Positions 17,026 to 31,904 of a stretch of DNA of 32,000 nucleotides are shown piece after piece. This DNA comes from Telmatocola sphagniphila. GTDB lineage: Bacteria; Planctomycetota; Planctomycetia; Gemmatales; Gemmataceae. A program made the translations under genes and the position numbers. Below the pieces are notes generated by a model that did no database searches, had not been told where the DNA came from, and was given only the letters and a program-made list of their open reading frames with translations. The DNA lies in the NCBI RefSeq assembly GCF_018398935.1, contig NZ_CP074694.1:4800001-4832000 (forward strand). Direction: 5' to 3'. Numbering within the stretch: position 1 is the stretch's first letter; the number at the start of each line of letters is the position of its first letter.

Positions 17026-18453
17026 ATGACTCTCCCTTTTGATCGTCGTCAAATTATCAAACTCGGTGCGGCCGCACCTCTGGGCTATTTCTTCACCGGA
17101 CCCGCGACTTCGGTTGTGAAGGCCTACGGCTCGGCCGACCGCTTACGCGTAGCCGGGATTGGTGTCGGCGGCAAAGGATCGAGCGATATTGAACAGGCCG
17201 GCGCCGTGATGGACGTCGTCGCCCTCTGCGATATCGACGAACATCGACTCAACCAGCGAGCTACCACCTGGCCCCAGGCGAAGAAATATTTCGACTATCG
17301 AAAACTGTTCGACGAGATGCTCAAGGAAATCGATGCCGTAGTGGTCTCCACCCCCGACCATTCGCACGCCAAGCCTTCGCTAATCGCGATTCACTCCGGC
17401 AAACACGTTTACTGTCAGAAGCCCCTGGCTCAGACCCCCTTCGAAGCCCGACTGATGCGCGAAGCGGCCGCCAAGGCCGGAGTGGTTACTCAGATGGGGA
17501 ATCAAGGCTCGGGACTAAGCGGTCTACGGCGAGCCGTGGAACTGATTCGCACGGGGGTCCTCGGCGACATCCTCGAGGCGCATGTCTGGACAAATCGTCC
17601 TTTCAAATATTGGAAGCAGTCTCCCGATGTGGTCTCCCGGCCACCCGAAGCGGCCGTTCCGGCTTACGTCCACTGGGACGAATGGCTGGGGGCCGCCCCG
17701 TTCCGGCCTTATGCCGTGCGCGACGACAAGAATTCTCCCGGCGGCAAGCGACCCGCCTACCACCCGCACGACTGGCGCGGTTACTGGGACTTTGGTACCG
17801 GGGCTTTGGGCGATATGGCCTGCCACACCGCCAATATGGCCTACCGGGCTATGGAACTCGACGCCCCGATCGCCGTGAGTGCGGAGGCGGCCGCGATCAA
17901 TCCGGAAACTTACCCCGCCTGGGCCAAGATTCAGTATCACTTCCCGGCGCGGGGCACCAAGCCCGCAGTTGTGCTGCACTGGTACGAAGGGGCTCGCGAC
18001 GGCAGCCGGGTTCTGCCTTCGACGGAACTGCTTGCCAAGGTGCTCAAAAAGGGTGAAAGCGCTGCCGATAGCGGATCGCTCTTGATCGGTTCGAAAGGAA
18101 TGCTGTATAGCCCGAACGATTACGGCGCGGAATTCCGGCTAACTCCCGAAAAAGACTTCATGGGAGTTCAGACCAAGAAACCGGAGAGTGGCCCGGAAGG
18201 TATCCCGGACAATCCGGATGCCTACATGAAGCGGGAATGGGCCGAAGCGATCAAGGCCGGGAAGCCATCGATGGCCTCCTCAAGCTTTGCCATCGCCGGC
18301 CGACTGACCGAGACGATGCTGCTGGGCAACATCGCCGTGCGTTTTGCGGGTCAGAAACTGGATTGGGATACGGCAACGCAGAAGTTCAAGAACTCCTCGC
18401 AGGCGAGCGCTTTGGTCTCCAAGGCGTATCGCAAGGGGTTTGAGTTGAGTTGA
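17026..18453 (+). CDS. Gfo/Idh/MocA family oxidoreductase with Tat-type signal
   Basis: MTLPFDRRQIIKLGAAAPLG signal and a Rossmann segment RVAGIGVGGKGSSDI...VVALCDID. The STPDHSHA motif is also present. The track ORF from 16801 is an upstream read-through extension. Confidence 0.85.
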   Translation: MTLPFDRRQIIKLGAAAPLGYFFTGPATSVVKAYGSADRLRVAGIGVGGKGSSDIEQAGAVMDVVALCDIDEHRLNQRATTWPQAKKYFDYRKLFDEMLKEIDAVVVSTPDHSHAKPSLIAIHSGKHVYCQKPLAQTPFEARLMREAAAKAGVVTQMGNQGSGLSGLRRAVELIRTGVLGDILEAHVWTNRPFKYWKQSPDVVSRPPEAAVPAYVHWDEWLGAAPFRPYAVRDDKNSPGGKRPAYHPHDWRGYWDFGTGALGDMACHTANMAYRAMELDAPIAVSAEAAAINPETYPAWAKIQYHFPARGTKPAVVLHWYEGARDGSRVLPSTELLAKVLKKGESAADSGSLLIGSKGMLYSPNDYGAEFRLTPEKDFMGVQTKKPESGPEGIPDNPDAYMKREWAEAIKAGKPSMASSSFAIAGRLTETMLLGNIAVRFAGQKLDWDTATQKFKNSSQASALVSKAYRKGFELS

Positions 18454-18502
18454 GCATTCAGCTGTCAGCATTCAGCTGTCAGCATTCAGCTGTCAGCTTG
18501 TT
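18454..18502. repeat. heptamer array (CATTCAG CTGTCAG)x3 ending in CTTGTTG; left arm of second inverted heptamer element
   Basis: Read directly. It starts 1 nt after the TGA stop (18451-18453) of the oxidoreductase gene. Confidence 0.9.
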
Positions 18503-18620
18503 GATTAAAGTTCACTCTCGCAATTCGGCGTGCTAGCCGTCGGCGAAAAAGCTTCTGAAACCCTGCGGATGGCAATTATCTTAGAGCACTCAGCCACTTC
18601 TAATCACTGAGTTCTCTAAG

Positions 18621-18655
18621 CTGACTGCTGACTGCTGATCGCTGATCGCTGACAG
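18621..18655. repeat. heptamer array CTGACTG x2, CTGATCG x2, CTGACAG; right arm, inverted relative to 18454-18502
   Basis: Read directly. It abuts the zwf stop codon complement CTA at 18656-18658. Confidence 0.9.
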
Positions 18656-20119
18656 CTATACCAACGGCTGCCACTTTCGCCCTTCTTCCGCCAGCAACGC
18701 ATCGGAGGTGGCGGGCCCCTGACTTCCGATCTCGTACTCGGTCATCACCGGGCCGTCTTTTGCAGAGGCCGCTTCGATGTACGGATCCATAATTTCCCAA
18801 CTTCGTTCGATCTCATCCCCGCGCATGAACAAAGACGAATCACCCTGAATCGCATCCAAAAGTAAGCGTTCGTACGCTTCGGGAAGAGATTTATCTCCGA
18901 AGGCCGTGCGGTAGTCGAACTTCAAATCTCGCACCTGCAAACGCGTCCCTTCCACGGCGGGCACTTTCGTCTGGAACGAAATCTTAATTCCCTCATTGGG
19001 TTGCAACACCAGCGACAGGCGATTGCATTCCATGATCTGGCCGGGCGGCAGCGGGAACATCATGTGCGGCGGACAGCGGAACTGAATCACCACTTCGCTG
19101 AAGCGAGATTTCAACGCTTTACCCGAGCGCAGGTAGAAGGGCACATTCTGCCAGCGACTGTTGTTGATTTCAAAACGGGCCGCGGCATAAGTCGGCGTCC
19201 GCGAGGTGGAAGGCACGCCGGGCTCCTGCAGGTAGCCCTTGTACTGGCCGACCGCCAACCATTTGCGGGCTTCTTCGGGAGTCGGGATGTGAACGGAATC
19301 GAGAACCTTGATCTTCTCGTTACGCAAGCGGTCGGACTGGAATTTCGCCGGCGATTCCATGGCCACCATGGTCAGCACCTGCAACAGGTGGCTCTGGAAC
19401 ATATCGCGCAAGACGCCCGAATTGTCGTAGTAGGCCCCTCGTTTACCAACGGGAACCGACTCGGCCACGGTGATCTGCACATGTTCGATGTACTGGGAGT
19501 TCCAGAGCGGTTCGAACAGCGTATTCGCAAAGCGGAGGACGAAAATGTTCTGAACCGTATCTTTGCCCAGGTAGTGGTCGATGCGGTAGATCTGCTTTTC
19601 GCGGAACTGGTCGTGTAACAGTTCGTTGATGTGTTGCGAGGATTTCAGATCGACGCCGAAAGGCTTTTCCACCACCAGTCGTCGGAAGTTCGTGTCGGTA
19701 TCGCTGGCCATGCCCGCTTCGCCCATCCGCTGGGCAATCTGCGGGTAGAGTTCGGGGGAAACGGAAAGATAGTAGACGCGGTTGCCGCCATTGGGCCCTT
19801 CTTTTTTAGTCAGCCAGTCCTTCAGATGCTGCATTCCTTCGGCCTGCCCGGCGTCGGCCGCACAGTAGAAGAGTTTGGAGGAAAAGCGCGTCCAGACCTC
19901 CGCATTCCAGCTCTCCCCGGCCCCTTTCATCGCCTCCTGAACTTTTGCTTCCATCTGGGTTCGGAAGGCTTCGTCCGTGAAGGCACTGCGGGCCACCCCC
20001 ACGATGAAGGCTTCCGGCGGCAGCAACCCGGCGACATCCAATCGATAGAGGGCGGGGATGAGCTTGCGGGAAGTCAAATCGCCGGAAGCACCGAAGATAA
20101 TAATGGCGGTCGATGGCAT
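18656..20119 (-). CDS. zwf: glucose-6-phosphate 1-dehydrogenase
   Basis: [23 protein letters not shown]-binding motif and the RIDHYLGK active-site motif; 487 aa. Confidence 0.95.
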
Positions 20120-20231
20120 GGGATTTCTCGTGATATCAAAATTGTCTGGCCCAGTTTCTCCCGAACGGAGAGAAACTGACCAAGTTGGTTTTATAGCTAA
20201 AGGGAGTAAGCAGCCAGAAAGGAGTATTGCA

Positions 20232-20330
20232 ATGACGATCTGGCATATATCAGATTTACATATTGCCCAGCCTGAAAAACTTATGAAAAAAAGGAGATTT
20301 TGCTTGCGAACGCCTAAAGTTAATGATTGA
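20232..20330 (+). pseudogene. 32-codon remnant resembling the N-terminus of a metallophosphoesterase
   Basis: AAGGAG is followed 8 nt later by ATG. The ORF reads [16 protein letters not shown]... and matches the calcineurin-like phosphoesterase motif I (ISDLH). It terminates after 32 codons. Confidence 0.35.
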
Positions 20331-20355
20331 CAACGCTTACGCGATTATTTAAGAT
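20327..20355 (+). promoter_or_regulatory. strong sigma-70-like promoter
   Basis: TTGACA (20327-20332), 17-nt spacer, TAAGAT (20350-20355). It lies about 385 nt upstream of the next start codon (20747). Confidence 0.45.
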
Positions 20356-20746
20356 GGTATCAACGATGCGGGAAGCGTGAGTAATACGACCATACCTTGC
20401 CAACTCCTCTTCTCCCGTTTTTGCAGGCGGCAACTCCCTTAAGCATAGTCTGAAAAGTTCTGACGCGCACCTAGGGTTCGTCTGGATACGGTACGCCTGC
20501 GCTCGAAATATCGTCTCTACGGATGTAGAAACGACCGCTTATCCGTCTACTAACGGTTGTAAGCATTGTGCGGGGGTCAGAAAGTGCGATAAACTTTCCG
20601 ACGCAAGCTTTTATAGGTAAGGAAGTTGTATCAATTCTCCTAGTTTACTTAGGAGGCGACTGGAGAAGGAAGACCGGTCGATTTTAATGCACGGATGCGG
20701 CTCGAACTGATCAGGCCAGTGATCGGCACTGGCGGAGTGCATTCGC

Positions 20747-21970
20747 ATGACGACCGATCTGAACAAGCTCCCGAAGAAAGATCTGACCGATAAGGCCAAG
20801 AAGCTTTCTATCCCCAACGCCGCGACGTTGAGCAAAGAGGACCTGATCAAAGCAATTCTCAAATTATCCAAAAAGAAAGAGAAACCGGCCCCTAAGCCGG
20901 TCGCCACCACGGTGAAAGCCAAAGAGATCCCCCCAGTTAAAGCCGCCAAACCCAGCGTCAACGGCCATCCCTCGAAGACTAAAGCTCCTCCCGCCATTGC
21001 CAACGGACACCCCGTCAAAAAGGTCCAGAAAAGCGCCGCCCGGGAGGGAGAAGTCAGCGCCAGCCACGAAGCCGCCAAGAGCAAGTTCGAAATGGGCGTC
21101 CCGTCCCGCGATCTGGCTTCCCGCATCCAGAAGACGCTGCCCAACGGCTACAGCAAAGACCGCATTGTCGTCATGGTTCGCGACCCTTATTGGCTGCACG
21201 TCTACTGGGAATTGACCCACCAGTCGGTCCAGCGGGCCGAGGCCGCTCTGGGACAGGACTGGCACGGCGCGAAGCCGATTCTGCGTATCTGCGATGTGAC
21301 CGCCCAGGACACCACCAGCACCGCGGAAGCCATCGTCAAAGACATCTACATTCACGGTGGCTGCAACAACTGGTATGTCGAGGTTCCCCAACCTCCCAAA
21401 TCGTACCGGATCGACATCGGTTACATTTCGAAGCGCGGCCAGCTCTATGTACTGGCTCGCTCCAATGTGGTGACTACTCCTAAAGCCGGCAGCAGCGACG
21501 CCGTCGATGAAAACTGGTCCGAACTGGATACCAAGAACGCCGACCGCATTATGAACATGTCGATGGGCGGCAATTTCGACCTGACCGGCAATATGCTGGG
21601 GATGCAGCCGGAACTGAAGACGCTGCTGGAAGAACGGCTCCGCAAGCCGCTTTCTTCGCCGACGCTGTCGAGCTATTCCTCGAGTTCGCACGGCGCTAAG
21701 GATCGCAAATTCTTCTTCTCTCTGGACGCCGAGTTGATCGTTTACGGTCGCACGGAACCCACTGCTCATGTGACGCTACAGGGCGAACCGATCAAGCTGC
21801 GACCGGATGGGACGTTCACCATGCGGTACAGCCTGCCGGACAGCCGGCAGATCATTCCGGCCATCGCCGCCTCTTCAGACGGCGTTGAAGAGCGCACCAT
21901 CGTGCTGGCCGTCGAGCGCAACACCAAGCAGCTCGAACCGCTGATTCATGACGGGAACACGGAACTGTAA
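20747..21970 (+). CDS. DUF4912-type protein with Rho-N/SAP-like N-terminal domain and K/P/A-rich linker
   Basis: The N-terminus LNKLPKKDLTDKAKKLSIPNAATLSKEDLIKAILK has the Rho termination factor N-terminal-like pattern. DRIVVMVRDPYWLHVYWELT is characteristic of DUF4912 as I recall it. Confidence 0.75.
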   Translation: MTTDLNKLPKKDLTDKAKKLSIPNAATLSKEDLIKAILKLSKKKEKPAPKPVATTVKAKEIPPVKAAKPSVNGHPSKTKAPPAIANGHPVKKVQKSAAREGEVSASHEAAKSKFEMGVPSRDLASRIQKTLPNGYSKDRIVVMVRDPYWLHVYWELTHQSVQRAEAALGQDWHGAKPILRICDVTAQDTTSTAEAIVKDIYIHGGCNNWYVEVPQPPKSYRIDIGYISKRGQLYVLARSNVVTTPKAGSSDAVDENWSELDTKNADRIMNMSMGGNFDLTGNMLGMQPELKTLLEERLRKPLSSPTLSSYSSSSHGAKDRKFFFSLDAELIVYGRTEPTAHVTLQGEPIKLRPDGTFTMRYSLPDSRQIIPAIAASSDGVEERTIVLAVERNTKQLEPLIHDGNTEL

Positions 21971-21987
21971 GTCGGATAAAGATTCAA

Positions 21988-22025
21988 AGCCTTCGACTTA
22001 CCAATTTCGAAGGCTCTTGATTTTT
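21988..22025 (+). terminator. intrinsic terminator
   Basis: 9-bp stem agccttcga / tcgaaggct with a 10-nt loop, followed by cttgattttt. Confidence 0.6.
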
Positions 22026-22074
22026 CAGAATACGCAATAATCGAGAGTTACAGTTCTCGACTGATCTTAAATCG

Positions 22075-22106
22075 TTGGTTCTAGTCTTGATTGGTTCTAG
22101 TCTTGA
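22075..22106. repeat. perfect 16-bp tandem duplication TTGGTTCTAGTCTTGA x2
   Basis: Read directly. The second copy contains the stop codon (CTA at 22097-22099) and last codons of the putative nuclease gene. It sits at the left edge of the AT-rich island. Confidence 0.9.
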
Positions 22107-22978
22107 ATTGACATTCGACTAAGATCATCTGCCGAAATCTCTGATGAAGAAACTAGGCGATAATGCTTTTCGTCAACCAACTTAATCTCCCCTTCTATTT
22201 CAGTCAGTTCGAACATCACTATTACTTCGCCCTTGTCATCGATCTTAAATTGAACCGCAACCGGACGAGGAGTTAAGTTGGGGAATTTCTTTTTGCAAAG
22301 TGCAAGATCCTGCTTGATTTGAACGATTCCGATTTTGTCTTTCCCACCTTTGGCCTGCACTGGCACCACAAATTGTTGTCCTGTATTTCTAACTGCGACG
22401 TAGACTTCGTCGGTTTCGATTTGACCCATCAAAGGGACGGTAGTGCGAAGATGATTTTGAAGGGAATAGGCTGTCACCCGCAAAAAAATATCGATCATTC
22501 GGTTGTATCGAACTTTTGCCAACAGAGCCTGTTCGTCGCCTAAAGCATTCGCAATCACTATCTGAGGCGTCGAATCGGGGATTTTAATTTCAGCACGACC
22601 GTCGGTTGGAACTATGAGATTAGGTTTCTGAAGGCTGAAGCGATACTTTCCGTGTCCTGCCAACTCTATGACCCAAGCCAATCCGGAAGGCGCGGCGGAA
22701 ATAATTTCTGGCGGCATCTGAGATCTGAATCGAAAGCTGTAGATAAGATCGCCGATATTCTTCGGAAGTGGAATAGCTAAATTGGTGGCTGCAACTTCGA
22801 TTTCCGAGCGTTCGAACTCGAAAGCTGTCACACCTCTTCTAAAATGTTTTCGAAAAATATCTACCAATATTCCACCGTAACGATTCGGAGATTTAATGGC
22901 TTCAGAAGAGCGTTTTTTGGACACGATTCTGACCTTTCTGCTTCTTGGAACGGTGGGACGGATTCTGCTTGAAATCAA
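22097..22978 (-). CDS. putative type II restriction endonuclease (PD-(D/E)xK-like), function inferred
   Basis: Last gene of the glycosylase-methyltransferase operon. A candidate catalytic pattern is ...QIETDEVYVAV...(13 aa)...VPVQAKGG (D...Q-x-K variant). The start is uncertain because the ORF overlaps the methyltransferase by 77 nt. Confidence 0.5.
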   Translation of the reverse strand: MISSRIRPTVPRSRKVRIVSKKRSSEAIKSPNRYGGILVDIFRKHFRRGVTAFEFERSEIEVAATNLAIPLPKNIGDLIYSFRFRSQMPPEIISAAPSGLAWVIELAGHGKYRFSLQKPNLIVPTDGRAEIKIPDSTPQIVIANALGDEQALLAKVRYNRMIDIFLRVTAYSLQNHLRTTVPLMGQIETDEVYVAVRNTGQQFVVPVQAKGGKDKIGIVQIKQDLALCKKKFPNLTPRPVAVQFKIDDKGEVIVMFELTEIEGEIKLVDEKHYRLVSSSEISADDLSRMSIQD

Positions 22979-24512
22979 TGGCTTCTGGATGCCCTAAAAT
23001 CACGAACTCTCCGATGAAGCTCGATTCTTTGCAAGGTCGAATTGTAAATCCCAGCTTCGAACATGGCTCGAGTATTAACTTCAAATTTCGACTGCGGGCA
23101 ATCTCTTGCAAAAAAGTATCAGCTCGAATCCAAGTTAGCTCTACACCAGTCTCGCGGACTGCCCTAAGGACATCTTCGAATGAAAATTTAGCGTTCGAGA
23201 GCTCTCTCTTCTCCACGTCGTAGCGATCGTCGATTAATTTTCGAATCACGGGCGGAAAATGGACTCGATGAGGAATCCTTTTCAGGGTTCGCGGTCGTTC
23301 CATAGGAAGGTCGAATGAGTCTTTTAGAATTAAAGGCGCTTTTGGCTTAATTGGTTTTTTACCTATTGCTCGAATCACTCTCAAACCCAAAGCTTTGGCT
23401 AGTGGTGGGCATACAGCATTCCCTATCTGACGATATGCGTGCCACTTTAATGGATAAAAAGCGAACCAATCCGGGAATCCATGTAACCTTGCAGCCTCTC
23501 TGGCTGTGATACATCGCGGTTTAAATGGATGAATAGGTCTCGGCGAAGTATACGAACCGTGCGATGAATCCGACCCAGCACGCAAGGTCGGTGCCAGTCC
23601 GTTTGGATCGAGCTTGGGAAGTTTATGACTTGGCACCATTTCACCTACGGGTGTCGATTTGTAGAGCGATATGGCACGGGGGCTATGTCGAACACGCAAA
23701 CAGCCTGAGCAAACTTTCGAATTCCATACGCGCGGATGCGAATAATCATTGGGATCTTCCACAACTGATCGCATGACTTTTGCGTATTGCGTCCTGGGAG
23801 TCTTACTGTATTCGACGTCGTTTTCGACGAATAGCTGATCGTGGGCATCTACATCGGGAAGATCCTCAATCGCCTCCATAACTGAAGAACATTCGGGGGA
23901 TCCCTCCGGAATCATCGTCGGGTAATCTACAGAGAATTCCAAATCTTTTCGCACACCGATCAAAATCAATCGCCGTCGCTTCTGAGGCACTCCGAAATGG
24001 CTCGCATCTAAAATTTTTACCGGGTGCGTGATCTTATAACCTGCAAGTTCTAGGGTTTTTATCGCTTCATCGAGCACTACACGAGTGCTCCCCGAGAGCA
24101 TACCAGGTACGTTCTCCATAACGAATGCTTTGGGGCGAACTTCACACACTACTCTTACGTATTCTGAAACCAACGAATTTCTGGGATCCATCGCATCTCG
24201 TAGACCCATATTGCTGAAGCCCTGACAGGGTGGACCTCCAACGATGACATCTACGTCTTGAGTTTCGAGAGCTTCGAAAATTTCTTTCGCAGTGAGGTCA
24301 GAGACTGATTTGCAAATCGTTTTTCCATAAGGAAAATTCCGTTCGTGAGTCGCTACGTGATAACCATCCATCTCAACGCCAAGAGCAATATCGAATCCCG
24401 CCTGCTCGAATCCAACCGACATTCCACCCGCGCCGCAGAATAAATCGACGGCAATCGGTCGCCTTCGGGAATTTTTACCTTCGCCGGACACTCGAGTGCT
24501 CCTTTGCTTCAT
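22902..24512 (-). CDS. DNA (cytosine-5)-methyltransferase with about 150-aa C-terminal extension
   Basis: Motif I DLFCGAGGMSVGF, motif IV GGPPCQGFS, motif VI FVMENVPGM, motif VIII GVPQKRRRL and motif X QIGNAVCPPLA. ATG 24512 is preferred; the track ORF starts further upstream at 24611. Confidence 0.9.
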   Translation of the reverse strand: MKQRSTRVSGEGKNSRRRPIAVDLFCGAGGMSVGFEQAGFDIALGVEMDGYHVATHERNFPYGKTICKSVSDLTAKEIFEALETQDVDVIVGGPPCQGFSNMGLRDAMDPRNSLVSEYVRVVCEVRPKAFVMENVPGMLSGSTRVVLDEAIKTLELAGYKITHPVKILDASHFGVPQKRRRLILIGVRKDLEFSVDYPTMIPEGSPECSSVMEAIEDLPDVDAHDQLFVENDVEYSKTPRTQYAKVMRSVVEDPNDYSHPRVWNSKVCSGCLRVRHSPRAISLYKSTPVGEMVPSHKLPKLDPNGLAPTLRAGSDSSHGSYTSPRPIHPFKPRCITAREAARLHGFPDWFAFYPLKWHAYRQIGNAVCPPLAKALGLRVIRAIGKKPIKPKAPLILKDSFDLPMERPRTLKRIPHRVHFPPVIRKLIDDRYDVEKRELSNAKFSFEDVLRAVRETGVELTWIRADTFLQEIARSRNLKLILEPCSKLGFTIRPCKESSFIGEFVILGHPEAIDFKQNPSHRSKKQKGQNRVQKTLF

Positions 24513-25218
24513 GTTCTTTACCGAACCGGCACATGGTTCTGATCTTGCAGTGATTGCATTTAGGATTTCGCGGAAGGCAAACTTTTCTACCGTGCACAAC
24601 CATACCAACATGCAAGACCGTAGACATGCCTTCCGGGACGACCAGTGCCAACTTTCTTTGAGCTTGGTAATGTTTCAAATTGGGTGAAATTATTCCCATA
24701 CGCTCTGCAATTCTTTGGACATTCACGTCCACAGGAAAAGCATCTAGTTTGAAACTGTACATTAAGACGCACAATGCTGATTTTGGCCCCATCCCAGGGA
24801 GTGCAGCAATAGTTGAAAAAGCTATCTCGGGATCCATGCTCCTCAGAATTTTGGCAGGTTTCTTACCGATCGAAATTATTTTTTTTGCCGTCCTTTTTAT
24901 CTGAGTAGCTCGCTTTGTCGCAAGACCACCAGAAACTATGCAATCCTTAATCTCGCTAATCGAGGCTCGAGACAGATCTTCGAGCGTCGAGAATCGATTC
25001 GACAGATTTTTGAATGTTTTACGGTATTGGGCATCTGTAGTTTTAGCCGAAAGTAGTATGTAAAAAATCTCTCGAAGAGGATCCCGGAAATTCCCTAGTC
25101 GCGGCAGACCATATTCTTCGAAAAGCAGTTTACCCACTATTTTTAGCTTCGAGGTCCATACGGATTGATATCGCCTGCACTTGAGTTTCAAAAGCACTTG
25201 CGTCAAATTGCGAGTCAT
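24475..25218 (-). CDS. HhH-GPD DNA glycosylase of the endonuclease III/MutY/Mig family with 4Fe-4S cluster loop
   Basis: LLSAKTTD, HhH motif LPGMGPKSALCVL, VDVNVQRIAERMG (catalytic Asp context) and C-x6-C-x2-C-x5-C (CLPRNPKCNHCKIRTMC). Its 3' end overlaps the methyltransferase start by 38 nt. Confidence 0.85.
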   Translation of the reverse strand: MTRNLTQVLLKLKCRRYQSVWTSKLKIVGKLLFEEYGLPRLGNFRDPLREIFYILLSAKTTDAQYRKTFKNLSNRFSTLEDLSRASISEIKDCIVSGGLATKRATQIKRTAKKIISIGKKPAKILRSMDPEIAFSTIAALPGMGPKSALCVLMYSFKLDAFPVDVNVQRIAERMGIISPNLKHYQAQRKLALVVPEGMSTVLHVGMVVHGRKVCLPRNPKCNHCKIRTMCRFGKEHEAKEHSSVRRR

Positions 25219-25383
25219 CGCCTCATTCTTCTAATCTTCAGCCATCGATCAGGGGCCAAAAACCGACACACGAATTATAAATTACCTTTCGGCGGCTATC
25301 CTAGTCCCAAAATAACGCAAACCCAAGCTAGTATACATATTTTCACTTCAAAAAGAGCTGCAATTATCTGGAAAAATTGTCCA

Positions 25384-25887
25384 CTACTTCTTATCCGACG
25401 TCGTGTTGTCCACCACCACGCGCCAGCCGTCGGCCATATTCATCACCACCAGCGTATATCCCCCGGCCGGCTTGTCGGGCGATTTGCTGAAGGTCAGCGC
25501 CCAGCGGCCGGTCACGAACGCCAGATTCTCCGAAACATAAGTCACTTCAATATCGCTGAAACGAAGTTTCCCCATCTCTTTCCCGTCGGCCTTGTAGCGC
25601 TTGCGATAGCGCTCGAGCGTGGCCTCCCAGCCCTGGGTGACCGTGCCATCGGAAATGAATTTCAATTCGGGCGATTTCCAGTAACCGGCCATGTAACCTT
25701 CCAGATCCCCGCGATTCCAGGCGTCGGCCTGAAAATTCATCAGGGAGAGGACATCTTTGCCGAAATCGTTACTGCTTATCTGCGAACTGCTGGAATTGGA
25801 AGAGATTGCGAACAGGGCGACGCTCGCAAAGAGGAAAAACTCGGCAATCCAGAAAGCCCGCTTCGTTTTCAAACTGGAAGTGCACAT
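25384..25887 (-). CDS. secreted NTF2-fold (SnoaL-like/DUF4440-type) protein
   Basis: Signal/TM N-terminus. The pattern WNRGDLEGYMAGYW...GRWALTF...GGYTLVVMNMADGWRVVVDNTTS is typical of DUF4440-like proteins. Confidence 0.7.
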   Translation of the reverse strand: MCTSSLKTKRAFWIAEFFLFASVALFAISSNSSSSQISSNDFGKDVLSLMNFQADAWNRGDLEGYMAGYWKSPELKFISDGTVTQGWEATLERYRKRYKADGKEMGKLRFSDIEVTYVSENLAFVTGRWALTFSKSPDKPAGGYTLVVMNMADGWRVVVDNTTSDKK

Positions 25888-25921
25888 GAAATAACTCCGG
25901 TTTTCTGGTGCAAAAAACGGC

Positions 25922-27205
25922 TTAGCTATTACCCGAGATATCGAACACGAACAGCAACTCGTAATCGCGCAGATAGAGCTTGCCGTTGGAAATCACCGGG
26001 TGAGCCCACACTTTACCCTGGCCCGGCCGCAGTTTGCTGCTCTGGGGAATCTTAAAGCGGCTGATTTCCTCGTACTTCTTCTCGGAAGCCTTCACTAAAG
26101 CCAGCGTACCATCATTTTCCGAATAACAGTAGAGCATACCGGCCGCAGCACTCACCGAACCTTTGCCTACGCCTTGATTCTTCCAAACCGGTTCATCGCC
26201 GCCCGCTTTCATATTAAAGCACAGCCAGCCGCCGTTATCCGAGTGGCCATAAAGGAAGTCGCCCAGCCGAACGACCCCGCCATGATGATTGGCGAAGACC
26301 TTGTTCTTGGTATACACCGTGGTTGCCTTAATGCCTTCGCCGTCTTTTTCGAACTTGAAGCATTCGCAACCGGCCCCGTAACCTGCCGTGAAGAAGGCAT
26401 AATTGTCCTGAAGGACCGGAGTGGGGATCACTGCGATCTTGCGGGCCAAGCTCTTGTCACTCCAGAGCAATTTGCCATCTTTGGCGCGAACGCCGACGGC
26501 CGAGGACATGGTCTGCTGAACGTACTGTTTGATGCCTTCGACTTGGGAAATCACAATCGAAGAATACCCGGCGCCATCCTTAAAATCGGTGCATTTCCAG
26601 ACGGTTTCGCCCGTTTTCTTGTTGAGAGCAATCATGCCCGTGCCCGTGCCGGGGGTGCAAATGAGGTTATCGCCATCCACTAGGACCGATTCGCTGTAGC
26701 CCCATTGCGGGATTTTGCCGCCGAAATCCTTTACCAGGTTTTTGTTCCACTGCACTTCGCCTTTTTCGAGCGAAAGGCAATGCAAATCGCCCTTGGCCCC
26801 CAGCACGTAGAGGAAATCGCCATCGACGGTCGGGGTACCGCGCGGCCCGCCGCCCCACATATCCAGGAATTCGCCTTGGGCGGTTTTCAGTTTGGTCTGC
26901 CATACCTGGGAACCATCTTTGACGTTCAGACAGGTAACGAACTCCTCGGCGTCCTTTTTCGGACCGGTTCCGCCGAGAATGTAGAGGTTATTTTTGACGA
27001 TGACCGGCGTGCCGTAACCGGTGCCCACTTTGCTTTCTTCGGTGATCGACCAGAGCAACTTCGGCCCGTCTTTGGGCCAAACTTCGAGCAATTTGGTGTC
27101 GCTGGAAATACTATCCCGGTTCGGTCCCTGCCATTGGGGCCAGTCACCAGCGCTGGCCAACGATACCGATAGGAGCATGGCCGCCAAAGATTTACGAAAC
27201 CGCAT
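25922..27205 (-). CDS. PQQ-like beta-propeller repeat protein (BamB-like fold)
   Basis: Signal peptide followed by GDWPQWQGPNRDSIS. Repeated blade motifs end ...LYLRDYELLFVFDI. Confidence 0.85.
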   Translation of the reverse strand: MRFRKSLAAMLLSVSLASAGDWPQWQGPNRDSISSDTKLLEVWPKDGPKLLWSITEESKVGTGYGTPVIVKNNLYILGGTGPKKDAEEFVTCLNVKDGSQVWQTKLKTAQGEFLDMWGGGPRGTPTVDGDFLYVLGAKGDLHCLSLEKGEVQWNKNLVKDFGGKIPQWGYSESVLVDGDNLICTPGTGTGMIALNKKTGETVWKCTDFKDGAGYSSIVISQVEGIKQYVQQTMSSAVGVRAKDGKLLWSDKSLARKIAVIPTPVLQDNYAFFTAGYGAGCECFKFEKDGEGIKATTVYTKNKVFANHHGGVVRLGDFLYGHSDNGGWLCFNMKAGGDEPVWKNQGVGKGSVSAAAGMLYCYSENDGTLALVKASEKKYEEISRFKIPQSSKLRPGQGKVWAHPVISNGKLYLRDYELLFVFDISGNS

Positions 27206-27816
27206 TGTGGACCTCAGTCAAGTAGGTGAGAAAGTACCGGTAATAGCCGTCAGACTTTGCAGCGCGTCTGAAATTCCTCGATTGAAGGCATTATGCGGGA
27301 CTTGTCATTCCCAGACAAGCGGAACGCGACGGAGAAGGGGATAATTCTGGGGCGCGGGACAAAGAGAAAAGTGGGAGGAGAATTAATCGCTATCACCAGA
27401 AGATTTAACAATCCAGTAGGTTAAGAGTTCTCTTCCTCTGTCAGCCAGATACCCCCATATGCGTCCAAACCGAATCGCCTCTGCTCTATCGACCTGACGA
27501 AACGGTCCAGCCATGCCCCAAAAGAAGAAAAGATCAGACGTTGCGGTGTACTACCCGTATTACACGAATGGAACACTTGGCCTGTAGCATCGCCCGGCTA
27601 AGGTACTATGTCAGAGAGTATCTTGTCCCGATGCGCATCCATAATCGGTATCCATCTCGGCCGATAGCGAGCATTATTGCGGCCACCCGATTTCAGTATT
27701 CAGATTTATGATCTAAATTTTCGCGATTCGCATCTTTCGGGGCGAAAGGAAGTAATTTTTCCGACTCCGCTTTCGTCAATAAGGCGTAACTGAAACGAAT
27801 TCGTAACGAGGTCGGG

Positions 27817-28326
27817 ATGTTGTCAATCGACTGGGATGTCATTCTCGCTCGACATGGTCAGATGGTGATTCAGGCTGCCATGCGCATCCTGGGTTGCCAA
27901 TCGGATGCCGAAGATGTGGCGCAAGAAGTCTTCATGGAGGCTTTTTCCTCCGCCAAAGTGCCCTCAAGATTACCTATCCGGAATTGGGGAGCTTATCTCC
28001 GGAAACTCGCGGTTTTCCGTGCGATTGATCGACGGCGACAACGTAGCAAAAATTCGACAACCAGTGTGGATAATCTGGCACTCCCAGGTTTCTCGGCCCA
28101 CGATGAGGCCGTGCGACAAGAACTGAAAGAAAATTTGAGAGCGCTAGTCGCCGCCTTACCGGAGCGTGAAGGAGTGGTTTTTGCGCTGCGCTACTTCGAA
28201 CAGCTTTCCAACCCGGAGATAGCGGAAAGCCTTGGCATCAGCGTCGGCGCAGTAGCAGCCGCGATTCATAAGGCCCGCTCGAAGCTCGAATCGACATTAA
28301 CGACTCATACAGAAGGAGATAAATAA
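27817..28326 (+). CDS. ECF-type RNA polymerase sigma factor
   Basis: Region 2 (DAEDVAQEVFMEAF...YLRKLAVFRAIDRRR) and region 4 HTH (LPEREGVVFALRYFEQLSNPEIAESLGISVGAVAAAIHKARSKL). Confidence 0.9.
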   Translation: MLSIDWDVILARHGQMVIQAAMRILGCQSDAEDVAQEVFMEAFSSAKVPSRLPIRNWGAYLRKLAVFRAIDRRRQRSKNSTTSVDNLALPGFSAHDEAVRQELKENLRALVAALPEREGVVFALRYFEQLSNPEIAESLGISVGAVAAAIHKARSKLESTLTTHTEGDK

Positions 28327-29864
28327 TGAGAGAACCCAGCAATCAAGACAATTTTTCTCATCATTCAGAACTACCAGAGCCCTTTCGAGTTGCCGTCGAG
28401 GCTATCTTGAACGAGCCGGCTCCGAAGCTGATTTCGAGTCAATTTGATTTTTTGAGAACTCGACCCGTTCGAACACCCTCCTATGCCTGGATGATCCGGG
28501 GGGCGGCATGCTCGGCAGTCTGCGCTGCTGCGATTCTGTTGCTGTTGGCGATGACCTTTTCTCCGTCGGATGCCTGGTCGCAGGTTCTAAAAAACGCCCA
28601 GAAGCAAGCTTGGATTCGAATAACGGAGAATGGGGCAGAGAAAAATAAGACGAGTGAAATCTGGTTCTCCGCAACGAAGGGAATGTTTGCCATCGTGTCT
28701 CCGGAAGAAGTGAGTTTTGCCAACTTTGATGAGAAGAAAATACAGAAGTTCGATAGGCGCACAAAAACGATCACCGTAGGGGAGTTTGACTCAGACAATC
28801 GGACCGAAGCCATGGCATTTGACAATGTTTTCCGGTCGATTTCGGCAAGCAAGCTTGTTTCTTTAGATCGAATCGGTGAGGGCAAAATTGTTGACCGCCG
28901 AACCACTACGCGAAATGAGGGGGATCATCGCTGGACGGAATATATGTTTTTGCTCGAGTTTCGAAACAGTTCCCCCGCAAACTTACAATTAACGTACCAC
29001 GTCCCTGCTGAGACGGAGCTTGCCAATAAAATAGTGGAAGAGTGGACGGAAGAAGGAGTGCGAGTTTCACGCACCTGCAAGATCGATTATCCTTCTTCAG
29101 GCCCCGAAACTATATACGCACTTAATGTTCCGAACGAATCCAAAATTGTTGATACACGTTATACGGAGGAACTGAAAGTTTTACTTAAAGAGTATGTTAA
29201 ACAACAGAAAACACAATTTGATCCATACTCTGCTACTGTGATGTCAACAATCGTGGATTGGAAAGAAATTAATTTGGACGTCATTAAGCTCCAGTATACC
29301 GGATCAGAATACTCCGCCAAGCAAGTCGATGGGGATCAGATTTTCAAATTGGTTCGCGAAGCCGACCCCACTAAAGTTCCGGCGGCGGATGATCGGATTA
29401 AGTGGTGGAAGGAGCAAGTCGACAAACTCTGTTTTGAAACCTGGGGGGATAAAAACATGTTTTTCCCAGGTCAGACTTTCGTCCCGGATCTGATTGGACA
29501 CCCTTTGCTTGGACTCGTTCCATACAACCTACGAGTCACAATGAATTCAAAACCACAGATTGGTCCAAGCAATTGTAACTTGGTAACTGTTGAAGATGCC
29601 AAAACTGGCAAAATTCTGAATCGCTATTGGTTGTCCCCAGATCAGCAGTTGCTTTGTCTTCGGTCTGAACGATTTCCGGAGAAACCGATTGATTTGATTT
29701 CGGTGACTGTGATTGAGGAGGTCGAACAATCTCCTAAAGGTCGCTATTACGCGACTCTCTACCGGCAGGGAGAGGTCAAGCAGAGCGGTGACGATCTGAA
29801 GCCTACCGGAGTATCGCCTGGAGCGACCGTCATCAGGAAGTTTCTCGTTGAGTTTTCGAAGTAG
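28326..29864 (+). CDS. single-pass membrane protein co-transcribed with the ECF sigma factor (putative anti-sigma factor/sensor)
   Basis: TAATG stop/start overlap, with AAGGAG at 28313-28318. The layout is a 60-aa cytoplasmic N-terminus, one TM helix (GAACSAVCAAAILLLLAMTF) and a 430-aa extracytoplasmic domain with no recognised motif. No zinc HxxxCxxC motif is present. Confidence 0.6.
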   Translation: MREPSNQDNFSHHSELPEPFRVAVEAILNEPAPKLISSQFDFLRTRPVRTPSYAWMIRGAACSAVCAAAILLLLAMTFSPSDAWSQVLKNAQKQAWIRITENGAEKNKTSEIWFSATKGMFAIVSPEEVSFANFDEKKIQKFDRRTKTITVGEFDSDNRTEAMAFDNVFRSISASKLVSLDRIGEGKIVDRRTTTRNEGDHRWTEYMFLLEFRNSSPANLQLTYHVPAETELANKIVEEWTEEGVRVSRTCKIDYPSSGPETIYALNVPNESKIVDTRYTEELKVLLKEYVKQQKTQFDPYSATVMSTIVDWKEINLDVIKLQYTGSEYSAKQVDGDQIFKLVREADPTKVPAADDRIKWWKEQVDKLCFETWGDKNMFFPGQTFVPDLIGHPLLGLVPYNLRVTMNSKPQIGPSNCNLVTVEDAKTGKILNRYWLSPDQQLLCLRSERFPEKPIDLISVTVIEEVEQSPKGRYYATLYRQGEVKQSGDDLKPTGVSPGATVIRKFLVEFSK

Positions 29865-29888
29865 CAACTCTCTTCTTCAAGCACTCGA

Positions 29889-30090
29889 CCGGCGGCGGGT
29901 GGCACTGCTAAGCAAACTAAATCAACGCATGTCATTATCCAGTAACGGTTTGGGTGGAACTGGCTATTGCCAGTGCCGATTCGATATAACTCCCGCTTTT
30001 TCGGATCGAATTTGTTTCGGAGTTGGTGAAAAGTCTCTGCGATTTCTCTTTCTCAGGCACTGGCAAATAGCCAGAGCCGCCCGCCCGCGA
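29889..30090. repeat. structured repeat copy A (left arm, conserved core, partial right arm)
   Basis: Hand alignment to copy B (offset 892 bp) gives roughly 85-90% identity over about 176 nt. The left arm 29927-29975 pairs with 30058-30087, with several G-T positions. Hairpins lie at 29958-29975 and 30058-30076. Confidence 0.85.
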
Positions 30091-30208
30091 CACTCGATCA
30101 ACGACAACTGGCGCGTAAATGGTTCAAACTGTTCCCTTTACGAGGCTAAAAATTAGAGGTAACGGCGTTGAGTGCCGCCCTTCGCCTGGGGATTATTTTG
30201 CTAATCAA

Positions 30209-30541
30209 TTATCGGGCTTCGTTCGGAATCGCGATCGAAGGGAAGCCAAAATTCTCGAGTTCACTTTCCTGAAAGGCACTGGAGATAGTCAGTTCATTCA
30301 CCATGATTCCTGCCAGAATCAGGGCGTGATATATGGCCTGTACGGAATCATCGCCTTGGGCTGTCTTGAGATCATCTTCGCCAGTGTCGCGAGTTCGTAC
30401 ATTACAGGCCCAATAGTTTGATTGACCAACGTTAATGTTTACAGGCATCGATATATCGAGATACGCATAACGAGTAGTCGCGAGATCATCGACCCAAGTA
30501 AAAGTCCGAGTACAGAGAAGGGATCCGAAATCGGCAGTCAT
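30209..30541 (-). CDS. small hypothetical protein (110 aa) between repeat copies A and B
   Basis: ATG at 30541 has GGAG 6 nt upstream. The longer 154-aa track ORF starts at a TTG with an implausible W/C/F/H-rich N-terminus. The segment YWACNV...GDDSVQAIYHALILAG recalls small W-x-C...G-x-D-S-x-Q-A-L proteins of unknown function; that similarity is from memory and unverified. Confidence 0.5.
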   Translation of the reverse strand: MTADFGSLLCTRTFTWVDDLATTRYAYLDISMPVNINVGQSNYWACNVRTRDTGEDDLKTAQGDDSVQAIYHALILAGIMVNELTISSAFQESELENFGFPSIAIPNEAR

Positions 30542-30785
30542 AAATGACTCCAAGTTAGAAGAGTAATAAGTATTTTTATTTCTATGGAACAAGAACTGAA
30601 ACGAGTGTTCAGGCCCCGACAACACCAGTGGACACAATGTAAGCGATTCCACCAACAACCACGATTGTTCCAACTACAAATTCCGGGATCATTCGTTAAA
30701 ATATCCGCAATTTCACTCGCAGTCATTACCGCGAGTTCAACAGCCTCTTGACCAACCTCCACTAGACCCCTAACAGTTGATTTTA

Positions 30786-30996
30786 CGGCGGCTGCACTGG
30801 TAACCAAACTAAATCAACGCATGTCATTATTCAGAAACGTTTTGGGTGGCAATTACTATCTGCCCGTGCCGTTTCGATATAACTCCCGCTTTCGGATCGA
30901 ATTTGTTTCGGAGTTGGCGAAAAGTCTCCGAGATTTCTCTTTCTCAGTCACTGGCAGATAGCCAGTGCCACCTAAACCGTTACCTCATAATGATTT
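30786..30996. repeat. structured repeat copy B (complete: about 45-nt inverted arms around an 80-nt core)
   Basis: Left arm 30822-30868 pairs with right arm 30949-30995 at about 35 of 47 positions by hand. A perfect hairpin CACTGGC-agata-GCCAGTG lies at 30949-30967. Confidence 0.85.
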
Positions 30997-31076
30997 GCGG
31001 TGACTCTAAAGGGTTACCAGTGCCACCCGACGATAGCGCGTCGCGGTCGCGGTTATCACACGGACGGCGTGTCGAG

Positions 31077-31226
31077 CGCTATTTGCCCGTAGTTGATCGA
31101 AAGAGACGTCAATTGGTTGAAAGCTTTAGTCAGGAAAGCTATACTTGTTCAACGAAAATGGAAGATCGTTGCGATTACGCATTGGCAAATAGCCAATACC
31201 ACCCAAACCTTTACCTGACAATGACT
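31077..31226. repeat. structured repeat copy C (degenerate left arm, different core, well-preserved right arm)
   Basis: Right arm 31181-31226 (cattggcaaatagccaataccacccaaacctttacctgacaatgac) aligns to the copy B right arm. The left remnant gcgctatttgcccgt lies at 31077-31091. Confidence 0.6.
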
Positions 31227-31298
31227 TATGGCGATTTATAGAGGTTGAGTGCGATTTCCTGCTGCGTGCACATAGCACAAACCCAGAATTGGGATCGA

Positions 31299-31904
31299 AT
31301 GCTGGACACTGTTTACGAAAACTACCGGTTCACCAGAATTGCCCGGGAGTTGTTGCGAAACTCTTCTCGCGAATTCACGATCAACGAACTTCAGCAGAGA
31401 GGATATGTTTCGCGCAGAATTGCCCGCAAGATTTATCACTTCCAAAGTTTACACACTCTTTTTCACTCTTGGAACCTGCGTACTTCCGTTGTTAATGGAA
31501 TTACGGAAGCCATTGAGCTATCGACGAATTCAGACAAGCCGGAAACGACGGACGGCGTGGGAGCCTATGTCTCTTGCTTCTACCTTCTTTATGTGAGCAC
31601 CGAAGCCAACATTGATGTCAATATAATCGATTCCATGAACGCGTTCAAACTCCTGGCGAACTACTGCTTCTTCGCGGAGCATGCGAACTCAAGTCTGCTG
31701 ATGGAATTTCTTGCGATACTCCGAAAGAGGCTTTCTTCGATTAGAAAAAGCGATGCTTCCGACTATCTTTCTGCTTGTGAGCTGTGCCAGGATTTTTTGA
31801 AAAACGGTTCCGTTGATTTCTCAAAAACGGAGGATTCCGATCAATCAGAAATCACCTTCGAACTTCGGAAGCATATGAGAAGACTTATGCAAATTCGTTG
31901 CTAA
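31299..31904 (+). CDS. hypothetical protein (orphan), directly downstream of repeat copy C
   Basis: Open frame from 31245 (TTG). The first ATG at 31299 is preferred, giving 201 aa. It is predicted helical with no recognisable motif. Confidence 0.55.
   Translation: MLDTVYENYRFTRIARELLRNSSREFTINELQQRGYVSRRIARKIYHFQSLHTLFHSWNLRTSVVNGITEAIELSTNSDKPETTDGVGAYVSCFYLLYVSTEANIDVNIIDSMNAFKLLANYCFFAEHANSSLLMEFLAILRKRLSSIRKSDASDYLSACELCQDFLKNGSVDFSKTEDSDQSEITFELRKHMRRLMQIRC

Follow-up and report, generated by a model that had tools for sequence, protein, structure and literature searches.

Near the end of a 32-kb stretch of the 6.59-Mb chromosome of Telmatocola sphagniphila (Planctomycetota, Gemmataceae), three copies of a non-coding palindromic repeat, here called A, B and C, occupy less than 1.4 kb. 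What are these repeats: mobile DNA, a folded RNA, or recombination sites for the small orphan genes between and beside them? A preliminary description of this stretch (hereafter the window) had left four candidates unranked: a miniature inverted-repeat transposable element (MITE), an IS200/IS605-type palindrome-associated element, an attC-like cassette boundary, and a structured non-coding RNA. Our analysis favors the first. The attC and IS200/IS605 candidates failed the tests described below, and the structured RNA gained no positive support. With moderate confidence, we read A, B and C as a MITE-like foldback repeat family that is species-restricted, locally clustered and decaying. The element is most likely an ordinary kind of bacterial feature, a palindromic non-coding mobile repeat, and it is the family that is most likely new and restricted to the species.

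Architecture of the repeat

Copies A and B are direct repeats with 87.9% identity over 190 nt and a start-to-start spacing of 891 to 893, in agreement with the earlier estimates of about 85 to 90% likeness and about 892 bp. Their resemblance opens at CGGCGG and closes at CCnCCCGnC, and the flanks on both sides are unrelated.

The two 75-nt arms of copy B (30794-30868 and 30949-31023) are 73% complementary and lie 80 nt apart, with weaker pairing out to 30786 and 31032. Copy B folded with a minimum free energy (MFE) of -100.3 kcal/mol, whereas its dinucleotide shuffles averaged -62.3 ± 4.7 (z = -8.1), and none of 200 matched it. The complementarity of the arms and this z score confirm for B the proposed arm-core-arm layout with a core of about 80 nt. 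However, B does not end at 30996, as had been proposed. It runs 36 nt further, to 31032, and its two arms are equal in length.

Copy A also folded significantly (z = -4.1), with the inner stem and the extreme termini paired and the middle of the left arm bulged. The proposed layout holds for the left arm of A, which is full, but not for its right arm, which is truncated by an internal deletion. About 23 inner nt and about 10 terminal nt of that arm are left. It reads GGCAAATAGCCAGAGCCGCCCGCCCGCGA, which is the inner motif fused straight onto the terminal sequence. This is consistent with a deletion between two direct CCAGTGCCACC motifs. Copy C folded no better than shuffles (z = -0.5). As described before, it has kept the right arm, its left arm is cut to 13 nt (GCTATTTGCCCGT), and its core is unlike the core shared by A and B. 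This common core gives A and B one orientation, as claimed; the claim does not extend to C, whose near-symmetrical arms give no readable direction.

We aligned six arm segments in a single orientation, built a profile from the four full arms, and ran it over the window. The profile recovered exactly the four full arms (E values of 1e-21 to 1e-24) plus the short fragment of the A right arm, and nothing else. The matches were at 29975-29892 and 30058-30080 in A and at 31180-31263 in C (E = 1e-21), and those in B had E values of about 1e-24. Similarity and arm profile searches found no further copy of the element in the remaining 30 kb of the window. For the arm motif search, the number of chance matches expected from shuffles was 0.

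A full arm has three parts. Its inner module (CACTGGC-N4-5-GCCAGTG-CCACC(C)AAACC) is a local hairpin, with a stem of 7 to 9 bp and a loop of 4 to 5 nt, joined to CCAGTGCCACC. About 45 nt separate this module from another CCAGTGCCACC, which leads into a GC-rich terminus (CCGCCGCCGG or CCGACG). The hairpin CACTGGC-N4-5-GCCAGTG was found in every arm except the degenerate left arm of B. Besides the best example, listed in Table 1, inner modules lie at 29952-29975 (minus), 30058-30081, 30845-30868 (minus, degenerate) and 31180-31203. Further copies of CCAGTGCCACC lie at 29898-29908 (minus), 29953-29963 (minus), 30071-30081, 30790-30800 (minus) and 31193-31203. With two mismatches or fewer allowed, 7 of the 22 matches to this motif in the window fall inside the 1.3-kb cluster. 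The outer ends of the elements read CGGC, CGCG, CGGC and CGTC, and the local hairpin is flanked by CAGT/CCAC. The alignments show an ancestral unit of about 250 bp, with two terminal inverted arms of about 83 to 87 bp and an exchangeable core of about 80 bp. They also show that each arm of the ancestral type carries two CCAGTGCCACC copies 55 nt apart, the inner one with the local hairpin.

All three copies are intergenic. Copy A lies 25 nt past the stop codon of a 512-aa gene, with convergent genes on either side, and copies B and C lie between divergent genes. The GC content of the cluster is 46%, compared with 51 to 61% across most of the window. The AT-rich context noted previously is therefore real in direction, but it is modest.

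The copies do not encode a protein. A 2-nt indel between A and B (CGCTTTTTCGG versus CGCTTTCGG) breaks the reading frames, and a chimeric query assembled from every open stretch in the six frames of each copy drew no match at E ≤ 0.01 among 5.8 billion proteins. The earlier view that the conservation is not protein-coding was based on this indel, and the absence of protein likeness in 5.8 billion clusters upholds it. A protein-coding remnant is excluded by the frame-breaking indel together with the lack of a match for any frame. Two long open reading frames (ORFs) cross the copies, one of 102 aa in A and one of 131 aa spanning B and C, and neither is in the collection as a called protein. If the MITE-like reading is true, ORFs 29848-30156 and 30846-31241 would be flagged as spurious.

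DNA palindrome or RNA structure

Judged from sequence, four results point to a DNA palindrome rather than an RNA structure. The MFEs of the plus and minus strands were -80.8 and -77.9 kcal/mol for A, -100.3 and about -105 for B (-104.7 to -105.3; z = -8.3 on the minus strand), and -43.7 and -45.6 for C. The numbers of G-U pairs on the plus and minus strands were 7 and 8 in A, 4 and 5 in B, and 4 and 5 in C. The preliminary description had seen a G-U asymmetry that favored the plus strand; both the energies and the counts are alike on the two strands, and the asymmetry is not borne out. Equal folding on both strands fits a DNA palindrome, unlike an RNA gene.

We compared the arms pairwise and did not use three-copy column pair counts. 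Such counting is meaningless here because the right arm of A and the left arm of C are not column-homologous. In a common orientation, the identity was 80% between A-left and B-left, 76.5% between A-left and B-right, and 70% between B-left and B-right. Complementarity was 76 to 78% for arms across copies and 73% within B. Arms thus match no better within one element than between copies, which suggests that the arms drift from a common ancestor and do not co-evolve. A search of Rfam 15 gave no match in the window at gathering thresholds. Over 29700-31400, with E values up to 10 accepted, it gave only two chance-level matches, both outside the elements. A known RNA family was rejected, as none was found in Rfam.

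These results bear on a second explanation, in which the elements work as a structured RNA or cis hairpin, whether as bidirectional terminator, mRNA stabilizer, RNase III target or small RNA, and are connected with the orphan genes. The very stable fold of B and the position of A, between convergent genes and 25 nt past a stop codon, would suit such a role. So would an arm position that differs on both sides in B, the well conserved A/B core, and a consensus promoter-like site in the C core that faces KIH39_19410, the gene downstream of C. However, the strands show no asymmetry, Rfam is empty within the elements even at E = 10, own arms pair no better than cross-copy arms, and C is unfolded. 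There is no T-run after the hairpins, promoter and terminator scans were at chance level, and the sole relative of the downstream gene has no element. We therefore consider a functional RNA very unlikely. Since the DNA is palindromic, a transcript through A or B would fold into a long hairpin, which might have an incidental effect on how the mRNA ends or how stable it is. Nothing indicates that any such role is being kept up.

Possible insertion and dispersal, and decay

Copy A is bracketed by the heptamer CACTCGA, exactly at the ends of the element. In shuffles of the flanks with a boundary slack of ±4 nt, a direct repeat of at least 7 nt occurred in 12 of 5000 cases. An orthologous site without copy A, if empty, would read ...CAAGCACTCGATCAACG....

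We favor the MITE-like reading because the repeats have discrete boundaries, long terminal inverted repeats, no coding capacity and one boundary-exact 7-bp duplication, and also because of their exchangeable cores, deletion derivatives and intergenic location. Terminal inverted repeats that bound a short unit, as in a MITE, are seen in the arms of B, and the outermost termini of A also pair. The lack of coding capacity is a further MITE property of all three copies.

In the mechanism we propose, the four symmetric CCAGTGCCACC copies of an element would be bound by a transposase whose gene lies elsewhere in the genome. The enzyme would cut intergenic DNA with a 7-bp stagger and insert the elements there, and the insertion of copy A would have duplicated 7 bp of the target, CACTCGA. 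The alignments show independent decay after the presumed insertion. Copy A appears to have lost the middle of its right arm by deletion between direct motifs, B to have gathered point changes in its left arm, and C to have lost nearly its whole left arm.

Several observations weigh against this reading. The window contains neither a transposase nor a partner insertion sequence, and among the ORFs of the 32 kb, of which the large ones were examined, none has a transposase or recombinase domain. The arms, at 83 to 87 bp, are well above the 15 to 30 bp of bacterial MITEs (PMC3733652). No flanking direct repeat was found for B or C; the best candidate, the 5-bp GATTT from B-left to C-right, was matched in 356 of 5000 shuffles and is not significant. 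The copies seen number only three and lie within 1.4 kb of one another, and dispersal is a defining property of MITEs. We found no relative of the element in the genome, metagenome, viral, plasmid or phage collections. In addition, the A/B core is 92 to 94% conserved and the left arm 86% (small counts), and transposase-bound ends predict the opposite. Lastly, both arms of B carry GGCAGATAG (G), and the right arm of A and both arms of C carry GGCAAATAG (A). This two-sided change in B could reflect selection for pairing. The local palindrome of copy C is also altered in both halves (ATTGGC/GCCAAT versus ACTGGC/GCCAGT). With three copies, the two-sided changes in B and C are without statistical weight. 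The main uncertainties of the MITE-like reading are dispersal and the single flanking duplication.

To the question of dispersal we applied a degenerate 26-nt pattern, CCACCYAAANCNTTNCNNNANAATGA, which fits all four full arms. It had 11 single matches in 185,579 species genomes, a collection in which inclusion of the T. sphagniphila chromosome beyond the window was not established. The metagenome collection gave 4 matches and IMG/VR none. We regard these matches as chance, because BLAST and the arm profile showed that the likeness is confined to the pattern itself. A blastn search of the plasmid and phage collections gave no match to the element.

Two contigs from an independent assembly of sequencing run SRR14506984 (Logan collection) cover positions 18468-29948 and 29922-30897 of the window. 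They end in the left arm of A and in the core of B, with a 27-nt overlap and continuous coverage. There is no exact repeat of at least 29 nt in the contig-break region of the window. The Logan contigs presumably come from a k = 31 graph. If so, near-identical sequence at other places in the genome would have made the graph branch, which would explain breaks without a local repeat. Assuming k = 31, the assembly breakpoints hint at further copies of the element elsewhere in the genome. The breaks, at 29919-29951 and about 30868-30898, imply that identical sequence occurs elsewhere in the genome, over about 33 nt for the A left arm and from 30868 onward for the B core. The start of the first Logan contig (18468) is also inside a repeat, a heptamer array.

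Could the copies instead be local palindromes that never moved? They would then have originated once at this locus, for example by replication template switching, and been copied by recombination with no dedicated enzyme. This would agree with the confinement of all known copies to 1.4 kb, with the lack of a relative in any collection, and with the absence of a duplication at B and C. However, the DNA between and beside the copies is unrelated, so there was no segmental duplication, and the boundary-exact 7-bp repeat at A is against a non-mobile origin. The Logan breakpoints, which suggest near-identical sequence elsewhere, are also against it. We consider this origin quite unlikely. Three further candidates were rejected. 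Segmental duplication of an element together with a gene does not fit the unrelated flanks and intervening DNA. Insertion of B into the left arm of C would have left an arm remainder upstream of B, where there is none. Repeats of a diversity-generating retroelement are excluded because the A/B differences, judged by eye, are not adenine-specific, and there is no reverse transcriptase nearby.

The flanking repeat also bears on transposition through single-stranded DNA. IS200/IS605 elements have no terminal inverted repeats or target duplication, and they carry distinct subterminal hairpins at their two ends. The long inverted arms and the 7-bp repeat at A therefore do not fit an IS200/IS605 palindrome-associated element. 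The main alternative to the MITE-like reading is a REPIN-like element or TIR dimer, in which the arms would be single-stranded DNA units for an IS200/IS605-type HUH tyrosine transposase (RAYT or TIRYT) encoded elsewhere. Two inverted units and their spacer would move jointly, and clusters would form as clusters of repetitive extragenic palindromes (REPs) do. HUH (IS200/IS605) transposition is not known to make a flanking duplication, so the 7-bp direct repeat at A argues against this. In addition, the local hairpins are at the inner and not the outer end of the arms, no RAYT gene is present in the window, and no high copy number was observed. On the other side, each arm has a conserved local hairpin, the two-sided change in C keeps the stem, and short palindromic units in inverted pairs, as in REPs and REPINs, are what we found. 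Like REP and TIR families, the copies cluster between genes and close to gene ends. Some TIR units are partly self-complementary, and such families, with many tyrosine transposase genes, have been reported in the planctomycete Rhodopirellula baltica (PMC3733652). However, the conserved GTAG or CGTC tag (PMC3733652) is absent here. On balance, we judge a REPIN-like element unlikely.

In another alternative, the elements would be gene-cassette boundary sites, attC-like or other, whose folded single strand is read by a recombinase encoded beyond the window. This would account for orphan genes positioned between sites of one orientation. The repeats are imperfect palindromes with conserved arms and a variable center, spaced by 0.9 kb with small orphan genes, and their GC content is below that of most of the window. 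The cluster is also at the extreme end of the window, and sequence past 32000 is unseen. However, attC sites are roughly 57 to 141 nt long, and elements of 202 to 247 nt are longer. A and B have no RYYYAAC/GTTRRRY pair at their ends, such sites occur about as often as in shuffles, and the single pair present (31147/31244) falls within the core and arm of C. The two orphan genes lie on different strands, C follows B without an intervening gene, no tyrosine recombinase is encoded in the 32 kb, and the 7-bp repeat at A is foreign to cassette integration. The attC-like boundary suggested at first thus fails on its core boxes, on a length about twice the usual, and on the absence of an integrase from the window. 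We regard cassette sites in general as highly improbable. The least probable of the readings is a novel cassette system in Gemmataceae, in which a 250-nt folded strand with four CCAGTGCCACC copies and a recombinase beyond the window would serve to capture orphan genes, KIH39_19405 and KIH39_19410 among them. If such a system existed, its sites would be an attC analogue with other core sequences and twice the size. A new mechanistic question would arise only if the cassette-boundary or the RNA reading were true.

If the MITE-like reading is true, the cluster represents a small species-restricted foldback family from a phylum in which mobile DNA has been poorly catalogued. It would account for the assembly breaks and would be a marker of genome plasticity beside orphan genes. 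The long arms with their paired 11-nt motifs offer a possible route to the transposase that binds them. The termini expected around a partner transposase or RAYT gene are CCGGCGGCGGGTGGCACTG and its complement.

Neighboring genes and comparison with known systems

Table 1. Features of the repeat cluster, in window coordinates
Feature	Position	Strand	Remarks
Left 7-bp direct repeat CACTCGA, candidate target-site duplication	29882..29888		Adjoins copy A; read directly
Copy A, 202 nt	29889..30090	+	Left arm 29889-29975, core 29976-30057, right arm 30058-30090 internally deleted
Right 7-bp direct repeat CACTCGA	30091..30097		Read directly; flank shuffles
KIH39_19405, 110-aa orphan gene between A and B	30209..30541	-	Exact match to QVL31001.1; context only
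Copy B, 247 nt, sole intact element	30786..31032	+	Left arm 30786-30868, core 30869-30948, right arm 30949-31032
Best inner arm module, hairpin CACTGGC-AGATA-GCCAGTG then CCACC	30949..30972	+	Alignment of six arm segments
Outer CCAGTGCCACC motif, 11 nt	31017..31027	+	Inner copy 30962-30972, 55 nt away; motif search
GC-rich 45-nt spacer between B and C	31033..31077		Unrelated to arms; no arm profile match
Copy C, degraded	31078..31254	+	Left remnant 31078-31090 (GCTATTTGCCCGT), unrelated core 31091-31179, right arm 31180-31254
KIH39_19410, 201-aa near-orphan gene downstream of C	31299..31904	+	Context only

KIH39_19405 has no relative among the 5.8 billion proteins, and its weak match to DUF6968 (26.8 bits) is below the 27-bit Pfam cut-off. 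For KIH39_19410, HMMER run exhaustively against 1.84 billion representative proteins found a single relative, P0009, with 39% identity. The family is very rare. The P0009 gene is at 1023-1646 of a 1.8-kb metagenome contig (L018), which contains no arm-like sequence and no comparable inverted repeat. The proposed link between a non-coding RNA and the adjacent orphan genes gains no support, since the sole relative of the 201-aa gene has no element nearby. The AlphaFold model of KIH39_19410 is all-helical and unreliable (predicted local distance difference test score, pLDDT, of 50), and no solved structure matched the protein by sequence. Near its N terminus, a helix-turn-helix is hinted at below threshold (HTH_11, E = 0.18). 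We found no paralogues of KIH39_19405 or KIH39_19410 that could serve as handles to other copies. A functional tie between the elements and these two genes is not supported.

Upstream of the cluster is an operon of an extracytoplasmic function (ECF) sigma factor gene (27817-28326) and the 512-aa orphan gene KIH39_19400 (28326-29864). Base 28326 is common to the stop codon of the first and the start codon of the second. KIH39_19400 has no Pfam domain, is the only member of its 90%-identity cluster, and occupies the slot expected for an anti-sigma partner. In the spacer between B and C, ATAGCGC (31033-31039) is the reverse complement of GCGCTAT (31076-31082), and there is an internal ACACG/CGTGT stem.

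The window has two intergenic pairs of inverted heptamer arrays. In the first, (TCAGCTT)x6 at 1644-1685 faces a perfect (GCTGACC)x22.4 at 1780-1936. In the second, (AGCATTCAGCTGTC)x3.2 at 18453-18498 faces a GCTGACC-like array (x5.4) at 18620-18657. Each pair flanks about 95 to 120 nt of unique sequence, and the arrays could pair mutually. A low-GC block (44 to 49%) at 22075-25218 looks like an acquired methylase/repair or restriction-modification module. It contains a C-5 cytosine DNA methylase (22902-24611, minus), an overlapping HhH-GPD glycosylase-type gene (24475-25218, minus) and an unassigned 293-aa ORF (22097-22978, minus), with a perfect 16-nt tandem duplication at 22075-22106.

Among known systems, integron attC sites (Vibrio cholerae repeats) resemble the elements as imperfect palindromes in one orientation (A and B only) between small orphan genes. 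They differ in that our elements have no core-site boxes at their termini, are about twice as long, lie among genes on opposite strands with no integrase in the window, and include a flanking duplication at copy A. Eukaryotic foldback transposons, and long-terminal-inverted-repeat elements with subterminal repeats, also have very long arms of repeated short motifs, a short variable middle and frequent internal deletions. That resemblance is an analogy of architecture only, with no homology.

REPINs and TIR dimers (Bertels & Rainey 2011; Di Nocera et al. 2013, PMC3733652) share with the elements inverted pairs of units, short imperfect palindromes and a spacer. They occur as dimers or clusters between genes and are known from a planctomycete. 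In contrast to them, the elements lack a GTAG or CGTC tag, have a far longer arm with the hairpin at its inner end, and include the 7-bp duplication at A.

The remaining comparison is with the palindromic bacterial MITEs (ERIC/IRU, YPAL, Correia/NEMIS, RUP and Nezha; PMC3733652). The elements differ from these in their arms of about 83 to 87 bp (15 to 30 bp is usual) with two 11-nt motifs each, and in their exchangeable core. They have no sequence likeness to any of the families, and none was retrieved from the phage and plasmid collections. The resemblance lies in their build. Like the elements described here, palindromic MITEs are small (70 to 300 bp), non-coding and intergenic, have terminal inverted repeats, and form a long hairpin on either strand. 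They also occur in full-length and internally deleted forms and are flanked by direct repeats, as is copy A.

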